DNA from: Gammaproteobacteria bacterium
GTDB taxonomy: Bacteria > Pseudomonadota > Gammaproteobacteria > UBA5335 > SLRW01
Direction: 5' to 3'
DNA: 64,000 nt
NCBI GenBank assembly: GCA_035638775.1
Contig: DASQZJ010000014.1
Location: 13,119 to 77,118 of the forward strand
Shown: positions 1,763 through 30,301 of the stretch, in pieces
Layout: each line of letters starts with the position of its first letter
Position numbering within the stretch: position 1 is the first letter of the stretch
Translations under genes and position numbers: made by a program
The notes under the pieces: generated by a model
The model's input: the letters and a program-made list of their open reading frames with translations, nothing else
Told to the model about the DNA's origin: nothing
Databases searched by the model: none

Positions 1763-2428
1763 ATGACAGAACTCGATATCGAACGCGCCCGTCGCAACAT
1801 GATCAGCCAGCAGGTGCGCGCCTGGGAAGTGCTGAACCAGCGGGTGCTGGAGATGCTGGAGCAGATGCCGCGGGAACGCTTCACGCCGGAGCGCTATCGC
1901 ACCCTCGCCTATTCCGACACCCAGATCCCGCTGGCCCACGGCGAGGTGATGATGGAGCCCAAGGTCGAAGGCCGCCTGCTCCAGGCGCTGGACATCCAGC
2001 CCGGGGACCGCGTGCTGGAGATCGGTACCGGCACGGGCTACCTGACGGCATGCCTGGCCAACCTGGCCGGCAGCGTCCACAGCGTGGAGATCCACGAGGA
2101 TTTCCTGGATCCGGCCGCCGGGCGCCTGCGCGAGCTCGGCATCGAGAACGTCACCCTGGACTCGGAGGACGCCGCGCGCGGCTTCAGCGATCCCGACCGT
2201 CGCTTCGACGCAATCGCGGTGACCGGGTCGCTTCCGACGCTGCACTACGGCTTCCACCGCAGCCTCGAGATCGGTGGACGGCTGTTCGTGATCGTCGGCA
2301 CCCAGCCGATCATGGAGGCCCTGCTCATCACCCGCATGGGCGAGCAGGAATGGTCCACCGAGAGCCTGTTCGAGACCGATCTTCCGGCACTGCGCAATCT
2401 CGAGGCGCCCAGCGACTTTTCTTTCTGA
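1763..2428 (+). CDS. protein-L-isoaspartate O-methyltransferase family protein
   Basis: ORF 1712..2428, with the start moved to internal MTELDIERAR. SAM-binding motif VLEIGTGTGYLTA. PCMT-like proteins commonly sit upstream of tolC in gammaproteobacteria. Confidence 0.85.
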   Translation: MTELDIERARRNMISQQVRAWEVLNQRVLEMLEQMPRERFTPERYRTLAYSDTQIPLAHGEVMMEPKVEGRLLQALDIQPGDRVLEIGTGTGYLTACLANLAGSVHSVEIHEDFLDPAAGRLRELGIENVTLDSEDAARGFSDPDRRFDAIAVTGSLPTLHYGFHRSLEIGGRLFVIVGTQPIMEALLITRMGEQEWSTESLFETDLPALRNLEAPSDFSF

Positions 2429-2493
2429 GCAGCCCTTCGGCGCCCCGGGCCCCCTCCGGAACGAGTCACCGAACCGACGGGACGGTGCATGCA

Positions 2494-4202: not shown

Positions 4203-5480
4203 TCAGGCCGCGGACCCGCCCAGGTACGGGGCCAGCTCGCGCAGGAGCGAGTCGAGCACGCCGCCGTTGCGACGCACCAGGTCCAGGCCCTGCTCTCCCA
4301 TGGCGTGCGCGCGCTCCGGGTCGCCCATCAGGGACGCGACCGTCGCCGCCAGCTCGTCGGCGTTGCGCACGACCCTCAGGGCCCCCGCCTCTTCGAGCGC
4401 GGCGCTGATATCCGCGAAGTTGAACAGCTCCGGCCCGGTCAGCAGCGGCAGCCCCAGCGACGCCGGCTCCAGCAGGTTGTGGCCGCCCACGCGCACCAGG
4501 CTCCCCCCGACGAAGGCGATGTCCGCCGCGGCATAGTAGAGCATCAGCTCGCCCATGGTGTCGCCCAGGAACACGTCCGTGTGCGGCCCCGGCGTCTCGC
4601 CCGCGCTGCGCCGTGCCACCGCGAACCCCTGCCCGGTGCAGAGCGCGCCGGCCGCCGCGAAGCGATGCGGATGGCGCGGCACCAGCAGCAGGAGAGCCTG
4701 CGGGATGCGCTGCCGGAGCGCACGGTGCGCGCGCAATACCTGTTCGTCTTCTCCCTCGTGGGTGCTCGCCGCGATCCATACCGGCCGACGCGGCCCCCAC
4801 GACGCCCTCCATTGCAGCCCCTGTCGGCGGCCGGATGGATCGAACGGGAAGTCGAACTTCAGGTTGCCCGTGATCCGCAGGCGCTCGCGTGGCATCCCGA
4901 GCGTGTCCAGGCGGGATGCATCGGCTTCGCTCTGCGCGGCCGCAAGGGTCACCCGGGCCAGCGTCCATGCGACAAGCCGCCGCAATCGCCGGTAGGCCTG
5001 CAGGGAACGGCGCGAGATCCGGGCATTGGCAAGCACCACCGGGATCCCCCGGCGCCGGCACTGATTGAACAGGTTCGGCCAGAGCTCGGTCTCCATCACG
5101 ATCGCGAGTTCCGGGTCGACCCGGTCCAGGAACCGGCGCACTGCACCCGGAAGATCCAGCGGAACGTAACAGTGCCGTACGCTGTCGCCGAAGGCGGCCC
5201 TGGCGCGCTCGCGCCCGGTGGGAGTGAAGGTCGTCACCACGACGCCGCTCTCCGGGCGCTCCGCCATGATCCGCCGGATCAACGGCGTCGCCGCCATGAC
5301 CTCGCCGACCGAGACCGCGTGGACCCAGATCGTGCGCCGGCGGTGCCCGGTCGGTTCCACGCGTCCGAAGCGCTCCTTCCAGTCGCGCCAGTAGCGCCGG
5401 TCACGCCGTCCCAGCAGCAACAGGTACGCCAGGGCCAGCGGAAGCAGGCAGCGGAACGCCAGTGAATAGACAGCCCTCAT
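4203..5480 (-). CDS. waaA: 3-deoxy-D-manno-octulosonic acid (Kdo) transferase
   Basis: 425 aa. Contains IWVHAVSVGEVMAATPLI, VVVTTFTPTGRE and METELWPNL blocks characteristic of WaaA/KdtA. Confidence 0.9.
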   Translation of the reverse strand: MRAVYSLAFRCLLPLALAYLLLLGRRDRRYWRDWKERFGRVEPTGHRRRTIWVHAVSVGEVMAATPLIRRIMAERPESGVVVTTFTPTGRERARAAFGDSVRHCYVPLDLPGAVRRFLDRVDPELAIVMETELWPNLFNQCRRRGIPVVLANARISRRSLQAYRRLRRLVAWTLARVTLAAAQSEADASRLDTLGMPRERLRITGNLKFDFPFDPSGRRQGLQWRASWGPRRPVWIAASTHEGEDEQVLRAHRALRQRIPQALLLLVPRHPHRFAAAGALCTGQGFAVARRSAGETPGPHTDVFLGDTMGELMLYYAAADIAFVGGSLVRVGGHNLLEPASLGLPLLTGPELFNFADISAALEEAGALRVVRNADELAATVASLMGDPERAHAMGEQGLDLVRRNGGVLDSLLRELAPYLGGSAA

Positions 5481-12846: not shown

Positions 12847-13812
12847 TCAGGGAATCAGCAGCACCTTTCCGGTGGTTGCCCGCCCTTCGAGCAGCCGATG
12901 GGCCTCGGCGGCCTGCTCGAGAGGCAGCATGCGATCGATGCGCAATGCCAGGTCGCCGGCGGCGATCGATTCGAACAGCTCGCGTGCCCGCCACTCCAGC
13001 TCCGCCCGGTCGGCCGTGTAGTGCGCCAGGCTCGGCCGGGTGAGAAACAGCGATCCGGAGGCCAGCCCGCGGGGATCGAATGGCGGCACCGGGCCGCTCG
13101 ACTGGCCGAACAGTACCAGGGTGCCGCGAGTACGCAGGCAGCGCAGGCTGCCCTCGAAGGTCGATTGGCCGACCGAATCGTAGACGACGTGAACACCCTC
13201 GCCGCCGGTAATCCGCGCCACTTCGTCGACGAAGTCGTCGCGGCTGTAGAGGATCACCTCGTCGCAGCCGGCCTGGCGTGCGAGCCCCGCCTTCTCCTCG
13301 GTGGAAGCGGTGCCGATGACGTGCGCTCCGAGGGCGTGAGCCATCTGCACCAGCAGCAGGCCGACTCCGCCCGCGGCCGCATGGACCAGCGCCGTCTGCC
13401 CGCGCTGCAGCGCGAACGTGCTCCGGGTCAGGTAGTGTGCGGTCATGCCCTGCAGCATCGCTGCAGCCGCCTGTTCCGCGCTGATCCCGTCGGGAACCGC
13501 CACCAGCCGGTCCCGCGGCACCGTCGCATAATGCGCGTACGCGCCCGGAACGCCGGCCCATGCCACGGCCTGGCCGACCTCGAGATCGGCGACGCCCTCG
13601 CCGAACGCCTCGATCACGCCCGCGGCCTCGACCCCCGGCGTGAACGGCACCGGCATCGAATACAGGCCGGTGCGGAAGTAAACATCGATGTAGTTGACGC
13701 CGGCCGCCGAGATCCGGACCAGGACTTCCCCGGGCCCCGGCTGCGGTCGCGCCAGGGTCTCCTGCACCAGTACCTCCGGGCCGCCGGTCTTGTGCACACG
13801 GATCGCTTTCAT
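12847..13812 (-). CDS. qor: NADPH:quinone oxidoreductase (zeta-crystallin type MDR)
   Basis: ORF 12847..13872, start moved to MKAIRVHKTGGPEVL. Contains AAGVNYIDVY and the AAGGVGLLLVQ Rossmann motif. Confidence 0.88.
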   Translation of the reverse strand: MKAIRVHKTGGPEVLVQETLARPQPGPGEVLVRISAAGVNYIDVYFRTGLYSMPVPFTPGVEAAGVIEAFGEGVADLEVGQAVAWAGVPGAYAHYATVPRDRLVAVPDGISAEQAAAAMLQGMTAHYLTRSTFALQRGQTALVHAAAGGVGLLLVQMAHALGAHVIGTASTEEKAGLARQAGCDEVILYSRDDFVDEVARITGGEGVHVVYDSVGQSTFEGSLRCLRTRGTLVLFGQSSGPVPPFDPRGLASGSLFLTRPSLAHYTADRAELEWRARELFESIAAGDLALRIDRMLPLEQAAEAHRLLEGRATTGKVLLIP

Positions 13813-21258: not shown

Positions 21259-22107
21259 ATGTACACCCGCTGCCCGGAGTGCCACACGGATTTCGTCGTC
21301 GGTGCGACCCAGCTGCGGGCCGCGCGTGGCCTGGTTCGCTGCAGCCGCTGCGGTGCGACGTTCAACGCCCTGGACGACCTTCACGACGACATGCCGCCAC
21401 CACTGGCAGAACAGGACGGGGACACCGAACCGGCAACGCCCCCGCCCTACCGCTGGGCGGACGACGACGGCGCCGACTGGTGGACCATCCCGCCGGACCT
21501 GGAGCAGCGCCCGGACGCCGGACCGGCGTCACAGCCGGAGCCGGTGCGGCCGGAAGCCGAAGACCCGGGCGCCGACGAAACCGGGGATTCCCCGTTCGCC
21601 GAAGCTCCCCGGCCACGCCGCCCGCGGCGCTGGCTGTGGGGAACGCTCTGCGTACTGGCCCTGCTGGCGCTGGCGGCGCAGGCCGGGTTCTGGAACCGGG
21701 ATTCGTGGGCCGAGTCGCCGCAGTGGCGGCCGGTGCTCGCGGCGGTCTGCGGCCGCCTCCCGGTCCCCTGCGGCCTGCCGCCATTCGTCATGCTCGACCG
21801 GCTGCGTCTGGAAAACTACACGTTCTCCGCCGATCCCGACCGTCCCGGCGCCCTCTCGTTCTCCGGCGTGCTCGTGAACCGCGCTCCCCTGCCCCAGGCC
21901 TTCCCCCTGCTCCACATCAGCATGGAGAATCGCTGGGGAGATACGGTCGCCGTCGGCGCCTTCGGTCCCGCGGACTACCTGGGCGAGCCGGTCGACACGG
22001 AAGACGGCATTCGCCCGGGGCAGCACATTCCCATCCGTCTGGAGCTGAAGGATCCGGGATCACAGGCCAGCGGTTTCCAGTTCGAGTTCGCCTCTCCGGA
22101 CCGCTAG
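21259..22107 (+). CDS. zinc-ribbon (MJ0042-type) / DUF3426 domain protein
   Basis: 282 aa. N-terminal MYTRCPECHTDFVVGATQL...VRCSRCGATFNAL zinc ribbon, an acidic/Pro-rich linker, one TM segment (LWGTLCVLALLALAAQAGFW) and a C-terminal domain. It holds the same position after prmA as the DUF3426 gene in pseudomonads. Confidence 0.75.
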   Translation: MYTRCPECHTDFVVGATQLRAARGLVRCSRCGATFNALDDLHDDMPPPLAEQDGDTEPATPPPYRWADDDGADWWTIPPDLEQRPDAGPASQPEPVRPEAEDPGADETGDSPFAEAPRPRRPRRWLWGTLCVLALLALAAQAGFWNRDSWAESPQWRPVLAAVCGRLPVPCGLPPFVMLDRLRLENYTFSADPDRPGALSFSGVLVNRAPLPQAFPLLHISMENRWGDTVAVGAFGPADYLGEPVDTEDGIRPGQHIPIRLELKDPGSQASGFQFEFASPDR

Positions 22108-22587
22108 GCGCGTTATTCCGAAGAGCCCGGGTCGGAAGCGGTGGCGGATGCAAAATCCGCCTACAAGCCGCCGGCGTAATGAGCTAGGATTACCCGGAGA
22201 ATCGTCGCCACCGATGGACCGGCCCGCGAGCTGCCTCGCGGAGACCCCGGCCCGGCCAACGCGACCGCCGGCAACGTGGCACACAGGGGGGCGCCGGATC
22301 TGCTTCTCGATCCGCTCGCGTGCGGCGCCCATCCGGCCCGGCCGATGCCGGGCCGTCGCGGGTAAGCACTCCCGCGTATGTGCTGGCAGGAGACTTTCGG
22401 CGCGTGCCGTGTGCGTGGGCACCGCCGGCCGACTGCCCGTTTGCGTCAGCGGGCAGCCGGTGAGCACCATCGCCCGGATAAACACAGATAAGGACGGCTC
22501 CCGACCACGTTCCGGCCGGGCAGGCCCGGCACATGCGGTGTGGCCGGGACCAATGCCGTCCCGCCGCGTTGCAAGGGGGTCGAAGAC

Positions 22588-22872
22588 ATGCTCAATCCGG
22601 AGAAGGCCGTCGGTCTGCATATGGAGCCACCCAAGAACCCGCCCGAGCCGCTCAGGACATGTGTGCAGAAAGCGCTCGACAAGTACTTCGCCGACCTGAA
22701 CGGGCACGCTCCCGGTGATCTCTACCAGATGGTGATGCGCGAGGTGGAAGCACCCCTGCTCGAATCCGTGATGGCGTATACCCGCGGAAACCAGACGCGG
22801 GCAGCGGAAATCCTGGGCATCAACCGCAGCACCCTGCGTAAGCGCCTGAGGACCCACAACCTCGACAAGTAA
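22588..22872 (+). CDS. fis: DNA-binding protein Fis
   Basis: ORF 22540..22872, start moved to MLNPEK (SD GGGGGT 7 nt upstream). Contains DLYQMVMREVEAPLLESVMAYTRGNQTRAAEILGINRSTLRKRL, the Fis HTH. Confidence 0.85.
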   Translation: MLNPEKAVGLHMEPPKNPPEPLRTCVQKALDKYFADLNGHAPGDLYQMVMREVEAPLLESVMAYTRGNQTRAAEILGINRSTLRKRLRTHNLDK

Positions 22873-22988: not shown

Positions 22989-24551
<1,563 letters not shown>

Positions 24552-24576
24552 GTCACCCCGAAGCGGAGAGATGTCC

Positions 24577-25869
24577 ATGTCGCAAGATGCCATGACGGTG
24601 CTGGTGGTCGGAGGCGGCGGCCGCGAGCATGCGCTCGCGTGGAAAGCCTCTCTCTCGCTGCGCGTGAGCCGGGTGCTGGTGGCGCCGGGCAACCCGGGAA
24701 CGGACAGGGAGCCGGGGATCGAAAACGCGGCGGTCGCGGCAGACGACCTCGACGGCCTGGTCGCGCTGGCGCGCCGGGAGGCCGTCGACCTGACCATCGT
24801 GGGCCCGGAGGCACCGCTGGTGGCCGGCCTTGCCGACCGCTTCGAGGAAGCCGGCCTGCGCTGCTTCGGTCCCCGTGCCGGGGCCGCCCGCCTGGAGGGC
24901 TCGAAGGCTTTCGCGAAGGCGTTCCTCACCCGTCACGGCATCCCCACGGCGGGCTATCGAACGTTCCGGGATCCGGACGAGGCCGAGCGCTACGTCCGGG
25001 ATCACCGTGGCCCGCTGGTGGTCAAGGCCGACGGCCTCGCCGCCGGCAAGGGCGTGGTGATCGCGCGCAGCCCGGACGAGGCCGCCGACGCGGCCCGGGC
25101 GATGCTCAGCGAGGGCCGTTTCGGCCCGGCGGGCTCGGAAGTCGTGATCGAGGATTTCCTGGAAGGGGAAGAGGCCAGTTTCATCGCCATGGTGGACGGC
25201 GAGCATGTACTGCCGCTCGCAACCTCGCAGGATCACAAGCGCCTGGGCGACGGCGACAGCGGGCCCAACACCGGGGGCATGGGCGCCTACTCGCCCGCAC
25301 CCGTGGTGACCCCGGCGGTCCATGAGCGGGTCATGCGCGAGGTGATCGAGCCGACGATCGCGGGCATGGCACGGGACGGCCATCGCTACACCGGATTCCT
25401 CTACGCCGGACTGATGGTCGCCCCGGACGGCACGCCACGCGTACTGGAATTCAACTGCCGCTTCGGCGATCCCGAGGCACAGCCGGTACTGATGCGACTG
25501 CAGTCCGACCTGGTCGCGCTGTGCGAGGCCGCCCTCGATGGCAGGCTGGATGCCGTGGAGGCAGCCTGGGACCCCCGCCCGGCGGTGGGCGTGGTGATGG
25601 CTTCCGGAGGCTATCCCGGACGTTACCGGAAGGGCCTGCCGATCGAGGGGCTGGAGGCGGATGCTGACCCGGAAGTGAAGGTCTTCCATGCCGGAACCGC
25701 GCGCCGGGAGCACGGGATCGTGACCGCCGGAGGCCGGGTGCTGTGCGTGTGTGCCCTGGGCGCGACGGTCGCCGACGCCCGCGACCGTGCCTACGAGCGT
25801 GTCGCCGGCATCGCCTGGGAGGGCGCGGTCTACCGGCACGATATCGCGGCCCGCGCGATCGATCGATAA
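24577..25869 (+). CDS. purD: phosphoribosylamine-glycine ligase
   Basis: The ORF opens at 24571. I chose ATG 24577 (GGAGAG 6 nt upstream); 24592 ([17 protein letters not shown]) is also possible. ATP-grasp PurD motifs run throughout. Confidence 0.92.
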
Positions 25870-26118: not shown

Positions 26119-27432
26119 TTAGAAAAACCGCTCCAGACTCACCTCCGCCCAGCCGCGGTGGTAGCTATCCGAGGCGAAATTCGAGTTGTCCTCCTCGTAG
26201 CCGAGCTGCAGCGCCGTGCGCCACTTGCCCGCGAAATCCCGGTGCAGGCCGAACTGGAGCATCGGTCGGCGATCGGTACGGTTCTTCGTGACCAGGCTGC
26301 CGGCCACGACCCGCGTGTCCGGGTCGCGGTAAACGCTGTACTGCCACGACAGTCTCGCACTGGCGACGATGCCGGCTGCCACGGGGTGGCTGTAGCGCAC
26401 CCCCAGGGTCTGGCGCACCGGTGAGAAGCTCAGGAAGACGGGGCCCTGGCGCAGGTCCCGGCGGCGGTTGAGCTCGAAGGTGTACCACAGCTGCCAGCCG
26501 GATGCGCCCGCCGGGGCACCGAAGCTTCCGCGGAGCTCCTGGCGCCAGCCGTCCAGGTAGCCGTAGCCGCTGCCGCCGAGAATACGGACGAAGCGATAGC
26601 GGAGCGCGAGGCGCAGGCCGTCGGTAACCGGGCGGGCTCCGCGCAACGTCAGGCCGGCCGTGCGCTCCAGCTCCCGGCCGCCGAAGTCGACCCGTCCGAC
26701 CCCGGCACGCGCACGTGTCTGCCAGTTGCCCAGTGGCCGGGTCCCCTCCACGCTCAGTGCGTAGCTGCCCAGGTCATAGCCCGACAATCCCGCGTAGCGC
26801 CGGGTATCCAGCGCCCCCAACACCCGCACGCCGCTCTGCCAGTCGCCGTGGACCAGGCCCTGCCCGGCCAGTAGAAGTCCCCCGTAGGCGGCGCCCTTGC
26901 GGCTGGCGGAGATCACCTGGTTGTCGCTGGCCAGGATCGCGTTGTCGTCGTAACCCGCGGAGAGCCGGGCCAGGCCGTACCAGCGGCGCGTCCCCGGCAG
27001 GCGGCCGAGCATCCGCTCGGCGAGCTGTCTCAGGGTCTTCGTCTCGGCCGTCTTTCTGGCCCGGTCGAACCAGTAGCGGGCGGCGCCGTGGCGGCCCTCC
27101 CGGTACGCCACCAGGCCGAGATTGTAGTAGCTCAGCGCGGCCATGCCGGGGGAGCCGGCGGACTTCAGGAAGGCATCCCGGGCCTGCGGATAGCGACCGA
27201 GGTGGTAATACGTCACCCCCAGGTTGTAGTACAGGGCGGCGGAGTGCATGCCGGCCTGCTCTGCACGCAGGAAATCGGAAAGGGCGGAGCGGTAGCGGTG
27301 CCCGTGGAACGCCGCGATGCCGTCCCGGAATGCCTGGTCGGCGGTCGTCCCCTGCGCCCGGGCCGGCAAGCCGTGCAGCAGGGACAGCAGGGCGATGGCA
27401 ACGGCCAGCGCCAGGGTTCTGGAAGCCGACAT
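26119..27432 (-). CDS. outer-membrane protein with N-terminal TPR repeats and C-terminal beta-barrel
   Basis: ORF 26119..27543, start moved to MSASRTLALAVAIALLSLLHGLPARAQG (signal peptide). TPR-like hairpins (LYYNLGVTYYHLGRYPQARDAF; SYYNLGLVAYREGRHGAARYWF). Then alternating beta-strand patterns from LSAGYDDNAIL to the terminal GWAEVSLERFF. Confidence 0.75.
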   Translation of the reverse strand: MSASRTLALAVAIALLSLLHGLPARAQGTTADQAFRDGIAAFHGHRYRSALSDFLRAEQAGMHSAALYYNLGVTYYHLGRYPQARDAFLKSAGSPGMAALSYYNLGLVAYREGRHGAARYWFDRARKTAETKTLRQLAERMLGRLPGTRRWYGLARLSAGYDDNAILASDNQVISASRKGAAYGGLLLAGQGLVHGDWQSGVRVLGALDTRRYAGLSGYDLGSYALSVEGTRPLGNWQTRARAGVGRVDFGGRELERTAGLTLRGARPVTDGLRLALRYRFVRILGGSGYGYLDGWRQELRGSFGAPAGASGWQLWYTFELNRRRDLRQGPVFLSFSPVRQTLGVRYSHPVAAGIVASARLSWQYSVYRDPDTRVVAGSLVTKNRTDRRPMLQFGLHRDFAGKWRTALQLGYEEDNSNFASDSYHRGWAEVSLERFF

Positions 27433-27641
27433 GAAATCCCCGTCTTCTTGCGCCGGCCCCCGCGTTCCGGCGACCGAAGGTGCGACTCGATCTCGCGACC
27501 CTGACGGGCCGATGCTCCCGACGATACGGCGGGCAGGCTCCACCGGGGAACCCGCCCGTCAAGGGATGTCTGCCGATTATACGGATAGCGGCGCGCCCGG
27601 GGGAAATCCAGGGACCCCGGACCCGGGGCGCGCCGTGAGGA

Positions 27642-28160
27642 TCAGTTGTCGGAGCCGCCGGAGGGCTGCAGCAGGTTGTTGAGCAGGTCCTGGGTCTGCT
27701 GCTCCACGTCCTGGGTGGTCTGCTTGAACTGCTGCGTGGTCTGGTTGAGATCCTGCTGCAACTGCTGCTGGGTCTGCCGGGTCTGCTGCTCGCTCTGCCG
27801 GGCCTGCTGCTGCGCCTGTTGCGCCTGGTCCTGCGCCTGTTGCGCCTGCTGCCGCGCCTGTTGTGCGTTCTCGCGCATCTGCTCCGCGTCCCGGGAGCCC
27901 TGCTGACCCGATGACATCTCGCCCGCCCGGCTCCCGTTGTCCGCGCCCTGCGCGGCCTGCTGCGCCGACCGGGCTGCCTGCCGTGCGTGCCCGGGAAGGT
28001 GGATCTGGTCGACGAACTTCTGCTCGCTGGCGTCGTTCGGGCTGACCACCGTCATGGTCACGCCCATGCCCCCGTTGCCGGCGGCGGACGCCGCGAGCGG
28101 TGCCATGGCAATGGCCGCAGCCACGAGCGCCAGCACCTTGACGAGGTTGTGACGTTTCAT
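27642..28160 (-). CDS. secreted Gln-rich low-complexity (predicted helical) protein
   Basis: 172 aa. Signal peptide MKRHNLVKVLALVAAAIAMAPLAASA. The C-terminal half is QQARQQAQQAQDQAQQAQQQARQSEQQTRQTQQQLQQDLNQTTQQFKQTTQDVEQQTQ. Same strand and 25 bp downstream of the anti-sigma gene. Confidence 0.7.
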   Translation of the reverse strand: MKRHNLVKVLALVAAAIAMAPLAASAAGNGGMGVTMTVVSPNDASEQKFVDQIHLPGHARQAARSAQQAAQGADNGSRAGEMSSGQQGSRDAEQMRENAQQARQQAQQAQDQAQQAQQQARQSEQQTRQTQQQLQQDLNQTTQQFKQTTQDVEQQTQDLLNNLLQPSGGSDN

Positions 28161-28185
28161 TGTCCTCTACCTCCCTGCCCGGTCG

Positions 28186-28845
28186 TCAGAGTTGCACGCC
28201 CTGAGTGCTCTCCGACGACGCGGACGGCTGGTTCTCCCCCGATACGCGCAGCCGTATGCGGATCTCCTTGACCTGGCCCTGGTGCTCGATACGGGCGACG
28301 AGCGTGCCCGTGCCGGCTCCGCTTGCCTTCAGCGGCAGCGACAGTCCGTTGCGTCCCTGCTGCAGGTGCCCCTTCCAGCGCAGGTCCCGCTGGCCCGGGT
28401 AACCGGCGAGCTCCACGTTGGCGGGCAGCCGAACCTCGAAGGTCACATCCTGCAGCGAGTGGCGCGAATCGAGCGCGAGCGTGACGGTCCGCTCACCCTG
28501 CTGCGGTACCAGCAGCACCCGGGAAGAGGGCTGCATGGACAGCCCCCAGCGCACGCCGACCAGGATGGCTGCGGCCAGGACACCGGCCGCCAGCGCCGAA
28601 ACCGCGGTCCAGCGCCGCCAGCGGCCCTGCCGACGCGCGCGCCGCAGCGCCTGCGCCGGAAAGTCCGGACGCATCGGGGGATCGGGCAGCGCGGCAAGCT
28701 GCCGGCGCAGGTCACGGACCTGCGCGGCGTAGGTACGGCAGTGCTCGCACCCCTCGAGATGCTCCCGCATGGCGGCGGATTCGGACGGCGCGAGCAACCC
28801 TTCCTGCCAGGCGTCCCAGTTCAGCTCGAAATCCGCACACTTCAT
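28186..28845 (-). CDS. anti-sigma factor (zf-HC2), single-pass membrane protein
   Basis: 219 aa. HLEGCEHC zinc-finger motif at the N-terminus, TM segment WTAVSALAAGVLAAAILVGV and a periplasmic domain of about 120 aa. The start overlaps the ECF sigma stop (ATGA). Confidence 0.8.
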   Translation of the reverse strand: MKCADFELNWDAWQEGLLAPSESAAMREHLEGCEHCRTYAAQVRDLRRQLAALPDPPMRPDFPAQALRRARRQGRWRRWTAVSALAAGVLAAAILVGVRWGLSMQPSSRVLLVPQQGERTVTLALDSRHSLQDVTFEVRLPANVELAGYPGQRDLRWKGHLQQGRNGLSLPLKASGAGTGTLVARIEHQGQVKEIRIRLRVSGENQPSASSESTQGVQL

Positions 28846-29474
28846 GGCCGTCTCCTCTCCCCTTTACACGATGTTTCCAGGGTGAGGGTTCCCTCCCGGT
28901 CAAGGAGCCCACGGAGCCGGGCCCGGGCCCGGTGCAGGCGGGACTTCAACGTGCCCACGGGCACCTCCAGCGTGGTCTCGATTTCCGCCAGCGTGAAGCC
29001 CTCCACGTCGTGCAGCAGCAGCACGGTACGGTGATCCTCGCTCAGGCGCGCCAGCGCCTGCTGCAGGGATGCGCTGTCGTCGCGCCGCTCGAGCGAAGCC
29101 TCCGGGTCGTCCGCCGGGTCCTCGCTGGCCGGCTCCGGGACGCTCCAGCCGCCGTCGGAGTCGGCATCCGGGTCCCGCGGCCCCCCGCCGATTTCGGCGT
29201 ACACTACCGGGCTGCGTCGCTGGCGCCGGCCCCGGTCGATGTGCAGCCGGTACAGCACCCGGGCCAGCCAGGGCCGAAGCTTGTCGATCCCGGCCAGCTC
29301 GTCCCGCCGGGGATACAGTCGCAGCAGCAGGTCCTGCACCAGGTCCTCGGCGTCATCCTGGTTGCCGGCAAGATGGAACGCGAAGCGGTACAACGCGGGG
29401 ATATGCGGACGCAGCAGCGCCTCGAACCCGTCGCCGTGGCGGTCGCTGCTCCACAGGCGGGTGATGCTCGCCAT
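28842..29474 (-). CDS. ECF-type RNA polymerase sigma factor
   Basis: 210 aa. Region 2 (ALYRFAFHLAGNQDDAEDLVQDLLLRLY ... WLARVLYRLHID) and region 4 (RTVLLLHDVEGFTLAEIETTLEVPVGTLKSRLHRAR), separated by an unusually long acidic linker. Confidence 0.88.
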   Translation of the reverse strand: MASITRLWSSDRHGDGFEALLRPHIPALYRFAFHLAGNQDDAEDLVQDLLLRLYPRRDELAGIDKLRPWLARVLYRLHIDRGRRQRRSPVVYAEIGGGPRDPDADSDGGWSVPEPASEDPADDPEASLERRDDSASLQQALARLSEDHRTVLLLHDVEGFTLAEIETTLEVPVGTLKSRLHRARARLRGLLDREGTLTLETSCKGERRRP

Positions 29475-29517
29475 GGACGCTACCCGCGGGCGAGCATTGC
29501 CGGGCGGTGCACCGGCA

Positions 29518-30183
29518 TCACCCGCGCTTGCGCGCCAGGGTCAGTCCGTCCCCCAGCGGCAGCATGCTCAGGTCGATGCGGTCGTCCTGGTGCAGCCGGC
29601 GGTTGAACACGGCCAGCGCCTGGCTGTCGGCGTCGTCGGGCGCCGGATCCACCACCCGCCCGGACCACAGCACGTTGTCGACCGCGACCAGCCCGCCCGG
29701 CCACAGCAGGGCGAGACAGTCCTCGAAATAGTCGCCGTACCCCTCCTTGTCCGCATCGATGAAGGCGAAATCGTAGCTGCCGTCCTCGCCGGCGCGGCGC
29801 AGCGCTTGCAGGGTCTGCCGGGCGGGCGCCAGGCGCAGATCGATGCGGTCGGCAACTGCCGCGCGTTCCCAGTAGGTGCGCGCCACCGCGGTCCACTCCT
29901 CGCTGGTGTCGCAGGCCACGACGCGCCCGTCGGCGGGCAGCGCAAGCGCCGTCACCAGCGCGCTGTAACCGGTGAATACTCCGATCTCGATGGTACGCCG
30001 GGCCTGCAGAAGCCGCAGCAGCAGCCCGAGGAACTGGCCCTGCTCCGGCGATATCTGCATCCCGGCGTAGCGCATGCGCGCGGTTTCCTCCCGCAGCTCG
30101 CACAGGATCGCCGGCTCACGCAGGGAGACGGAGAGAAGATACTCGTGCAGCTCGTCGTCGAGGGCGATGGTGCGTCTGTTCAT
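29518..30183 (-). CDS. class I SAM-dependent O-methyltransferase (family 3, caffeoyl-CoA OMT-like)
   Basis: ORF 29518..30270, start moved to MNRRTIALDDELHEYLL. Contains TIEIGVFTGYSAL and FAFIDADKEGY motifs. Confidence 0.85.
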   Translation of the reverse strand: MNRRTIALDDELHEYLLSVSLREPAILCELREETARMRYAGMQISPEQGQFLGLLLRLLQARRTIEIGVFTGYSALVTALALPADGRVVACDTSEEWTAVARTYWERAAVADRIDLRLAPARQTLQALRRAGEDGSYDFAFIDADKEGYGDYFEDCLALLWPGGLVAVDNVLWSGRVVDPAPDDADSQALAVFNRRLHQDDRIDLSMLPLGDGLTLARKRG

Positions 30184-30301
30184 GGCCGAAGCTCCTGTAT
30201 CCGGGCCCGTCGAGGGCCGGCCGTGCCGGCAGCATGTCCACACCCCCACGCCGGTCGCGCTCCATCGCATACCGGCGGCATCGCGCGGCGGAGGGTCGCC
30301 C

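Follow-up and report, generated by a model that had tools for sequence, protein, structure and literature searches.

Positions 13,119 to 77,118 of contig DASQZJ010000014.1 from a member of the Gammaproteobacteria (assembly GCA_035638775.1; the whole stretch of 64,000 nt is referred to below as the window) encode four adjacent genes, for a sigma factor of the extracytoplasmic function (ECF) type, an anti-sigma factor, a small Sec-exported protein and an outer membrane protein (OMP) in which tetratricopeptide repeats (TPR) precede a beta-barrel. Comparison of gene neighborhoods indicates that these four genes form a real, portable cassette, shared by numerous uncultured Proteobacteria and Desulfobacterota and well beyond a chance neighborhood, because the same gene set recurs in 28 to 29 of 30 lineages. 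The cassette is a new combination of known parts with two unnamed families or domains, namely, the periplasmic domain of the anti-sigma factor and the small protein. The reading that we favor, to which we give about an even chance, is that of an autoregulated ECF cassette that controls a Slam-like OMP, resembling the barrels of the type XI secretion system (T11SS), together with a partner protein whose tail is fed into the barrel or passes across it.

An initial annotation of the window, made from the letters alone, had placed four open reading frames (ORFs) here, and all four were found on the minus strand exactly where it put them:

28842..29474, minus strand, ECF sigma factor (group IV), 210 aa
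28186..28845, minus strand, single-pass anti-sigma factor of the zinc-binding anti-sigma (ZAS) type, 219 aa
27642..28160, minus strand, small Sec-exported protein, 172 aa
26119..27432, minus strand, OMP with TPR and barrel, 437 aa

The sigma factor stop codon and the anti-sigma start codon share an ATGA overlap; a 25-nt gap, with a Shine-Dalgarno sequence ahead of the small gene, follows the anti-sigma gene, and the small gene is set apart from the OMP gene by a 209-nt spacer. These features, as well as a TATAAT at 27581-27576, can be read directly in the sequence as the initial annotation had described them, and its domain calls (Sigma70_r2 and r4_2, zf-HC2 and TPR) were confirmed by Pfam. 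No stop codon interrupts the OMP ORF upstream as far as a GTG at 27543, but translation from the ATG at 27432 provides a signal peptide and agrees with the homologues. On public metagenome contigs with an identical OMP, genes called independently yield the same products of 210, 219, 172 and 437 aa.

Conservation of the cassette across lineages

Loci were collected from three sources: GTDB, scanned with one genome for each species (16 loci, distributed over Gammaproteobacteria, Burkholderiales, Chromatiales and several families of Thermodesulfobacteriota); a metagenome scan with an 11-sequence alignment (68 more loci, with about 46 true family members); and exact-protein look-ups for distant representatives (L001 and L018-L020). 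L-numbers denote the collected loci, L001 being the closest relative of the window (OMP 57% identical). Hidden Markov models (HMMs) of the module proteins were scored on all ORFs of these loci, and small proteins missed by the HMM were added by eye. Clustering of the OMPs at 70% identity resulted in 37 lineages, 30 of them informative and spanning Gammaproteobacteria, Betaproteobacteria and Desulfobacterota.

Next to the OMP gene, the sigma factor gene is present in 29 of the 30 informative lineages, and the anti-sigma and small protein genes in 28 each. Co-occurrence outside this genome, the test that the initial annotation had set in advance for its four-gene module, was thus found, in unrelated contexts and with permuted gene orders. 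The cassette has unrelated neighbors in different lineages: mer genes and a restriction-modification system in L018, PIN/MazE in L019, purD and a methyltransferase gene in the window and L001. The usual gene order is sigma-anti-sigma-small-OMP; it is permuted to anti-sigma-small-OMP-sigma in Desulfohalobiaceae (L007/L010) and to OMP-sigma-anti-sigma-small in L046/L048. In every lineage with an anti-sigma gene, the small gene is the next gene downstream of it, often overlapping or separated by no more than 25 nt. The distance from the small gene to the OMP gene is 6 to 13 nt in several lineages of Desulfobacterota. In L002, an ECF promoter (described below), the small gene and the OMP gene follow in a row, with no anti-sigma gene between them, and in L005 and L051, second small-protein genes with an ECF promoter of their own flank the OMP gene.

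The outer membrane protein and its relationship to Slam barrels

The OMP represents a large family, with 660 clusters at 50% identity detected at E<=1e-30 in an exhaustive profile search of 1.84 billion representatives; nearly all members are 420 to 450 aa long and match end to end. An earlier impression of a rare protein, given by word-indexed searches that returned 5 to 6 proteins each and were swamped by TPR and low-complexity words, was discarded.

The AlphaFold2 (AF2) model of the OMP, built from a 47-sequence alignment, has a mean predicted local distance difference test score (pLDDT) of 94 and a predicted template modeling score (pTM) of 0.77. In this model, the signal peptide (residues 1-26) is followed by seven helices that make up 3.5 TPRs (31-144, pLDDT about 97) and by 14 long strands (151-436), with short loops apart from L1, L5 and L6. 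The most conserved motif of the family, E-x-N-D-R-x-D-L...F-x-S-x-S-P-x-R-H, at residues 320-341, corresponds to loop L5 and its flanking strands. Comparison of the model with the Protein Data Bank (PDB) using Foldseek put BcsC first (1.3e-11), with PelB and PgaA also among the matches and no Slam structure among them; the best barrel superpositions were with the 14-stranded OmpG and CymA (TM-score, that is, template modeling score, of 0.66-0.70). One family member, P0006 (723 aa), carries three tandem copies of the TPR module ahead of the same barrel, so that the length of the periplasmic domain varies within the family.

In the Pfam scan, the OMP of the window matched TPR models only, with no match to DUF560, YaiO or any barrel family. 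Weak Pfam matches emerged among 47 family members, to BBP2_2 (34 of 47), TPR_Slam (PF24575; 22 of 47, below the cutoff) and SlipAM/DUF560 (17 of 47, best E-value 3e-6). Against SlipAM (PF04575; cutoff 22 bits), the barrel of an artificial family consensus scored 24.0 bits, and the alignment covered profile positions 62-288 of 288. BBP2_2 scores numerically better on the consensus but spans only the last 50 residues, that is, the terminal strands, and TIGR03016 and EpsL match only the C-terminal third of the consensus, far below their cutoffs. Because the consensus aligns over the SlipAM barrel and BBP2_2 only over the terminal strands, the OMP appears to be a remote relative of the Slam/T11SS barrels with the same domain plan, in a family missed by the Pfam model. 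Thus, the Slam-like affinity proposed in the initial annotation holds for the TPR domain, the 14 strands and the family consensus, but a DUF560 match is lacking for the OMP of the window itself; we file this protein as Slam-like rather than as a demonstrated T11SS member.

Under a crude assignment of the inward-facing barrel residues, about 20 Lys/Arg and 16 Asp/Glu occupy about 100 positions (net charge +3.8 +/- 4.7), and many conserved polar residues face the lumen. In the window OMP, the TPR domain has a net charge of +10 and the barrel of +13, opposite in sign to the acidic tails of the small proteins described next. The modeled charge of the lumen is weakly consistent with passage of such a tail.

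The small secreted protein

The small protein has a type I signal peptide with cleavage after ASA and belongs to no Pfam or NCBIfam family. At E<=0.1, neither the window protein nor two homologues matched MucB_RseB or LTXXQ (Spy/CpxP) in Pfam; the relationships to Spy/CpxP or, for the OMP, to YaiO that the initial annotation had put forward for checking were rejected, as no Pfam match was found. In the window, the core GVTMTVV...FVDQIHLP is followed by a Gln-rich low-complexity tail, and Gln accounts for 27% of the mature protein. Across the family, the core consists of an acidic residue and a short amphipathic strand, (V/L)-T-M-x-V-(V/I), followed about 8 to 20 residues on by I-x-L-P-(D/E). 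In most lineages, a helix, G-L-E-T-A-N-x-A-R-E...F-G-x-E-R-A-x-E-A-R, comes after this core. In total, the conserved motif spans 25 to 50 residues.

The low-complexity tails differ wholly in composition between lineages: they are rich in Gln in the window, L001 and L002, rich in Glu/Arg and single alpha-helix-like in Desulfobacterota, and built of Pro-Asp-Arg repeats in L012/L014, Glu-Ala-Gln repeats in L019, Gly/Ser/Glu repeats in L018, and poly-Asp with His or Lys in L008, L029, L053 and L064. The net charge of the tail is negative in nearly all lineages. Because tail composition differs completely between lineages, Gln-richness, which the initial annotation had used to characterize the protein and which is real in the window, is incidental, and the family is defined by the N-terminal motif and a hydrophilic, mostly acidic tail. 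By these features, the small protein constitutes a new, unnamed family.

The tails of L008, L029, L053 and L064/L069 consist of extreme Asp/His/Lys repeats, for example, DDRDDANDDRDDD many times over, with net charges down to -38; the small proteins of these loci lack the GLETANxARE helix. These tails look like divalent-cation-binding polyanions.

The motif also occurs outside the small proteins themselves. A secreted protein of 265 to 285 aa with a FecR domain (PF04773, 2e-13) carries the I-x-L-P-E...helix motif at its C-terminus. In a soil Burkholderiales-like lineage, its gene is inserted after the small gene and ahead of the OMP gene:

L004, 7054-7911 (also in L034, L063 and L065), FecR-domain protein with the small-protein motif

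This fusion suggests that the small-protein motif is a portable docking element.

The sigma and anti-sigma factors

The sigma factor consists of the sigma-2 and sigma-4 domains only (Sigma70_r2, PF04542, 7e-13; Sigma70_r4_2, PF08281, 5e-16) and matches TIGR02937 with 93 bits (cutoff 42.9). Its nearest solved structures are those of Mycobacterium tuberculosis SigE and SigH and Bacillus subtilis SigW.

The anti-sigma factor comprises a cytoplasmic zf-HC2 domain (Pfam match 7e-07), a transmembrane helix at about residues 79-100 and an Ig-like periplasmic domain at about 108-202. The ZAS motif is complete, with Cys3 and His29-x3-Cys33-x2-Cys36 invariant in 27 homologues, so that zinc binding is predicted. 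The family profile matches RsiW (1.2e-7), DdvA, RslA, ChrR and RsrA, in each case over the N-terminal cytoplasmic domain only. The periplasmic domain of about 100 residues is conserved as well (W157, G164, N166, L168, L170 and P171 are invariant or nearly so), and no sequence match to it was found in PDB or Pfam, where the family matches zf-HC2 alone. In the AF2 model, built from 6 sequences (overall pLDDT 61.5), this region is an 8-strand beta-sandwich (pLDDT 67-80), for which Foldseek returned only generic Ig-like/macroglobulin sandwiches. We regard it as a probably novel, unnamed Ig-like domain.

A conserved ECF promoter within the cassette

Alignment of the regions upstream of the sigma genes yielded an ECF-type promoter, GGAACC(TTTT)-N16-CGTGTAA, near the sigma start codon (P1), and scanning of all loci located a second copy (P2) 12 to 30 nt ahead of the anti-sigma start codon, a feature absent from the initial annotation. 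The strict pattern has 60 matches in the 612 kb of the loci compared with 3.65 in shuffled sequences. The motif is found upstream of the sigma gene in at least 10 lineages and ahead of the anti-sigma gene in at least 17; the strict P2 pattern is present in 17 of 30 lineages, and most of the others have variants at that place (TGAACCC...CGTCT, GGAACCC...CGTGA). P2 is intergenic in L019, L033, L043 and L045, and elsewhere is embedded in the sigma ORF at its 3' end, the frame being 0 in the window and 2 in other loci. Because it is either intergenic or located in different frames of the sigma ORF, P2 is a DNA signal and not a protein motif. We infer that the GGAACC-N16-CGTGTAA promoters depend on the cassette sigma factor; the promoter would be autoregulatory, and the cassette appears to be self-contained.

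In the window, P2 and a possible P1 are located as follows:

28866-28892, minus strand, P2, GGAACC-N16-CGTGT(AA), GGAACCCTCACCCTGGAAACATCGTGT, then GGAGAGGAG and ATG; about 21 nt upstream of the anti-sigma ATG, inside the sigma ORF
29481..29511, minus strand, possible degenerate P1, TGCACC-N17-CGCGGGTA, with about 4/6 and 3/5 positions matched

P2 is the sole exact match to the motif in the 64-kb window, and matches with one mismatch occur there at chance level, so that no further regulon members were detected in the window. P1 is intact in relatives, for example, L001, L003, L005, L008, L018 and L025. The motif is also found directly ahead of the small gene in L002 and ahead of the second small-protein genes in L005 and L051.

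Divergent copies of the motif precede a DUF4382 lipoprotein gene in L013 (1781-2856, minus strand) and genes for three secreted proteins, one of them DUF6160-like, in L051 (1-2562, minus strand). These copies hint at a wider, lineage-specific regulon.

In a divergent lineage from one sample set (L030, L032, L036-L042, L049, L050 and L054; for example, L050, 1390-5829), the OMP gene comes after a gene for a 291-aa OMP-like protein and a MipA gene, with neither the ECF pair nor the small protein nearby. In L050, a divergent ECF-type motif pair (2232-2259, minus strand; 2411-2438, plus strand) faces the OMP cluster and a gene for a TlpA-like redoxin, which implies that this lineage may be controlled by a sigma factor of the same type encoded elsewhere.

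The spacer between the small protein and OMP genes

In proteobacterial lineages, the small and OMP genes are separated by a spacer of 50 to 290 nt. At its start stands a strong hairpin that is GC-rich and in many cases carries a T-run. In the window, this spacer contains the following features:

27589..27635, minus strand, GC-rich hairpin, attenuator- or terminator-like, without a T-run, right after the small-gene stop codon (RNA fold)
27576..27581, minus strand, TATAAT, which may be a -10 element of the sigma-70 type serving the OMP gene or a short leader (read in the sequence)
27528..27560, minus strand, second hairpin, GACGGGCGGGTTCC...GGAGCCTGCCCGCC, kept in the closest relative L001 (alignment and folds)

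The spacer as a whole folds somewhat better than shuffled sequences (z = -2.2). It had no Rfam match and could be aligned only with that of L001, not across the deeper lineages. Of 23 lineage spacers, 4 contain the exact hexamer TATAAT, compared with an expectation of 1.2 (p ~0.03); three of the four sites lie 57 to 60 nt past the small-gene stop codon, and each is followed by a hairpin. A scan for sigma-70 promoters found no -35 element to fit the TATAAT and no complete promoter. The OMP gene may have a sigma-70-type promoter and a structured leader, a possibility with only modest support: the TATAAT singled out in the initial annotation is present and recurs, but lacks a matching -35 element.

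A strong hairpin follows the TATAAT within 10 to 25 nt in the window (27499-27581, minus strand), L033 (3201-3260), L059 (1712-1770) and L061 (about 4288-4350), with a U-run after the hairpin in L059 and L061. This arrangement could represent a promoter-proximal attenuator or a short RNA.

Genomic setting

The gene immediately beyond the sigma gene in the window encodes a methyltransferase:

29518-30186, minus strand, class I S-adenosylmethionine-dependent O-methyltransferase (PF01596, E 1e-72), between the sigma gene and rho

This gene ends 43 nt upstream of the sigma start codon, and the sigma gene may be transcribed by read-through from it. It adjoins the cassette in L001 as well and is absent from the other lineages, so that it is probably not part of the module, the arrangement being shared with L001 only. 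Its location between the sigma gene and rho means that the module does not directly abut rho-trxA; the placement of the module between purHD and rho-trxA in the initial annotation stands with respect to the housekeeping flanks but had omitted the intervening gene.

In both the window and L001, one flank consists of genes for a zinc-ribbon/DUF3426 protein, fis, purH and purD, and the other of the methyltransferase gene, rho, trxA and a DEAD-box helicase gene. The position of the cassette is ancestral to this pair. The G+C content (0.64-0.73) and skew of the module are indistinguishable from those of the flanks. Insertion as a recent island, that is, as the inserted accessory unit envisaged in the initial annotation, was rejected in view of this uniform composition and of the synteny with a relative whose OMP is 57% identical. 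The housekeeping context at 21259-22872 and 22989-25869 (both plus strand) agrees gene for gene with L001. Models of anti-phage defense systems from PADLOC, when applied to the module, gave only low-complexity noise for the small protein.

A model of the cassette function and its alternatives

Under the favored model, the SigE/SigH/SigW-like ECF sigma factor would be kept at the inner membrane by the single-pass, zinc-binding ZAS anti-sigma factor, with the Ig-like periplasmic domain as the presumed input. An envelope input would inactivate the anti-sigma factor, presumably via regulated proteolysis as for RsiW and RseA, and the freed sigma factor would then transcribe from its own GGAACC-N16-CGTGTAA promoters, that is, from P1 ahead of the sigma gene in the relatives and from P2, which would drive the anti-sigma gene, providing negative feedback, along with the small gene. 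The OMP gene would be reached by read-through past the hairpin or, in Desulfobacterota, by direct abutment. The small protein would be the dedicated partner of the OMP, docked through its N-terminal motif, and its hydrophilic, mostly acidic tail, disordered or forming a single helix, would enter or traverse the barrel on its way to the cell surface. We infer the signal, the anti-sigma proteolysis, the docking and the translocation; export of the small protein by the OMP is plausible.

The pairing of the small protein with the OMP under an ECF promoter in L002 and the small-protein paralogues around the OMP in L005 and L051 support this model. Further points in its favor are the recurrence of the gene set in unrelated settings and permuted orders, the fixed placement of P2 ahead of the anti-sigma gene, the TPR and barrel plan of the OMP with its polar, charged lumen, the close abutment of the small and OMP genes in Desulfobacterota, and the FecR-domain protein that bears the core motif. 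Several observations weigh against it. Neither a lipobox nor the C-terminal 8-stranded barrel common to known T11SS cargo (PMC12282271) is present in the small protein; hence, of the initial proposal that the Gln-rich protein is the cargo of the OMP, the adjacent, partner-like gene stands, whereas the cargo hallmarks are missing and the role stays conjectural. The constant adjacency of the small gene to the anti-sigma gene would fit a regulatory, RseB-like role equally well. P1 is degenerate in the window, no copy of the ECF motif lies directly ahead of any OMP gene, and most proteobacterial lineages have a hairpin or terminator in the spacer that parts the small gene from the OMP gene. In the divergent lineage described above, both the ECF pair and the small protein are missing from the neighborhood of the OMP. 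Finally, the window OMP does not match PF04575 even at E<=1, and the match of the family consensus to this model is only marginal.

The main rival to export is trans-envelope signaling, which we consider a real, if minority, possibility. Here, the small protein would act as a periplasmic co-regulator, encoded in an RseB-like position, that binds the Ig-like domain of the anti-sigma factor via its N-terminal strand motif; the TPR domain and/or barrel of the OMP would sense conditions at the outer membrane or cell surface and capture or release the small protein, changing the stability of the anti-sigma factor, and the targets would mostly lie elsewhere in the genome. Such a role fits well with the location of the small gene next after the anti-sigma gene wherever the latter is present, often overlapping or within 25 nt, with the conserved periplasmic domain of the anti-sigma factor, and with a regulon wider than the cassette, which is indicated by the same promoter type ahead of genes for a DUF4382 lipoprotein, a DUF6160-like protein, MipA and a TlpA-like redoxin; the Glu/Arg tails, which resemble single alpha-helix spacers, could be periplasmic rulers. 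However, L002 retains the promoter, small gene and OMP gene without an adjacent anti-sigma gene, and the small-protein paralogues gather around the OMP, not the anti-sigma factor (L005 and L051). Furthermore, such extreme variability of the tail would be odd in a specific regulatory ligand, and homology to RseB/MucB, to FecR (in the anti-sigma factor) or to TonB-dependent transducers was not found. We also considered a TonB-independent surface sensor, a 'threaded polyanion', which we find decidedly unlikely: the acidic tail would lie in or pass through the barrel, with the N-terminal strand motif on the Ig-like domain of the anti-sigma factor, and loss of cations, proteolysis, binding of cationic peptides or phages, or a change in envelope spacing would be relayed physically to the ECF sigma factor.

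It is rather unlikely, in our assessment, that the OMP and the small protein are independent envelope-stress effectors, co-regulated without physical contact, the former a structural or diffusion barrel and the latter a periplasmic polyanion serving as a cation buffer, chaperone-like or hydration protein, with the sigma factor pair as a generic envelope-stress switch. The nearest solved barrels by fold, OmpG and CymA, are indeed plain 14-stranded channels, the Asp/Glu/His-rich tails are similar to cation-binding polyanions, and one lineage has the OMP with MipA and an OMP-like gene and no small protein. Nevertheless, a TPR domain in the periplasm joined to a barrel marks export channels that bind a partner rather than plain porins; where the tails are otherwise unconstrained, a short N-terminal motif that stays conserved points to a specific docking partner; and the pairing of the small protein with the OMP outlasts both permutation of the gene order and loss of the ECF pair. 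An export porin for exopolysaccharide, or of the PEP-CTERM type (BcsC/PgaA/PelB/EpsL-like), next to which the small protein would be incidental, is highly improbable. BcsC is the top Foldseek match, PelB and PgaA are also present, and the consensus weakly matches TIGR03016/EpsL and BBP2_2, but these latter matches involve terminal beta-signal strands only and fall far below the NCBIfam cutoffs. We rejected this candidate based on the strand count (14 compared with 16 to 18), the length of the TPR region (3.5 repeats compared with long arrays) and the lack of synthase genes: no glycosyltransferase or synthase genes were found in the window flanks or in three related loci with Pfam-annotated neighbors, in accord with the observation in the initial annotation that no glycosyltransferases accompany the module.

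Comparison with known systems and implications

The OMPs of T11SS, a secretion system that was recognized only recently, are DUF560 barrels with periplasmic TPRs (PMC8406197, PMC12282271). Their known cargo has a C-terminal 8-stranded barrel (TbpBBD/lipoprotein C), often consists of lipoproteins and is frequently linked to TonB-dependent receptors; all verified cargo comes from one animal-associated cluster and has one targeting domain, and the role of the other clusters is open (PMC12282271). The cassette resembles Slam/T11SS, as represented by Neisseria Slam1 and Xenorhabdus NilB/HrpB, in having a Sec-exported OMP with a TPR domain of about 120 to 140 aa and a 14-stranded barrel (PMC8406197), in the location of the OMP gene beside that of a Sec-exported partner, and in the alignment of the consensus over the DUF560 barrel. 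It differs in that the family members are below or near Pfam detection and hence absent from the published PF04575-based networks, and in the partner, where a short N-terminal motif and an acidic low-complexity tail take the place of the lipobox, C-terminal 8-stranded barrel and handle domains. In addition, there is no linkage to TonB or a TonB-dependent receptor, and the OMP is tied to an ECF sigma factor and its anti-sigma factor, a link absent from the T11SS papers. As the initial annotation had supposed, we found the module described in neither the ECF reclassification paper, as far as its main text goes, nor the T11SS papers. Our search of the literature found no paper with both DUF560 and sigma factor; Slam and ECF terms appeared together in only one, on an unrelated topic, gonococcal lysozyme inhibitors. 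A search for literature on PF10082/TIGR03016 found nothing relevant.

The rpoE-rseA-rseB operon of Escherichia coli encodes a sigma factor, a single-pass anti-sigma factor and a periplasmic protein and is autoregulated; in this bacterium, rseA is reported to have a sigmaE-dependent promoter upstream. The cassette shares with this operon the gene order and the placement of a promoter, here a predicted one, for the anti-sigma operon inside or just past the sigma gene, and would likewise be autoregulated; it differs in that the anti-sigma factor belongs to the ZAS/RsiW class, the third gene has no homology to MucB/RseB, and a TPR-barrel OMP is included. The sigma factor and its partner are closest to SigW-RsiW, SigE-RseA of M. 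tuberculosis and SigH-RshA, as indicated by the RsiW match (1.2e-7) and the full C...HxxxCxxC motif; unlike these pairs, the cassette operates in a Gram-negative envelope, has a seemingly novel Ig-like periplasmic sensor domain and co-encodes outer-membrane components.

The other parallels are analogies only. FecA-FecR-FecI and Rcs (with RcsF through OmpA/C/F) combine a barrel, a periplasm-spanning element and an inner-membrane regulator; for the cassette, such a relay is hypothetical. In contrast to FecA-FecR-FecI, there is no TonB-dependent transducer, the OMP not being TonB-dependent, and no FecR domain in the anti-sigma factor, although some cassette loci contain the FecR-domain protein with the small-protein motif. 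Unlike Rcs, the cassette has no lipoprotein and no homology to Rcs components. In curli (CsgG/CsgA) and Fap (FapF/FapC), a low-complexity substrate is encoded beside a dedicated outer-membrane channel with a periplasmic accessory domain, but there is no homology, amyloid-type imperfect repeats are not shared, and the cassette tails are acidic rather than amyloidogenic.

The analysis brings to light a large environmental family of Slam-like barrels (the 660 clusters described above), putatively a sister family, that has been overlooked by Pfam-based surveys, and gives names and boundaries to three families currently annotated as 'TPR protein' or 'hypothetical'. The four-gene construct opens the questions of whether Slam-like barrels can take non-barrel, disordered substrates, what the TPR domain recognizes, and how the link between an ECF/ZAS pair and an outer-membrane machine is made, and the cassette offers for this purpose a compact candidate partner and a built-in switch with a recognizable promoter. 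If the small protein relays information from the barrel to the anti-sigma factor, this would be a new signaling architecture, and if the polyanionic tail is threaded through the barrel as a sensor, the cassette would represent a new class of cell-surface signaling built on a Slam-like barrel.

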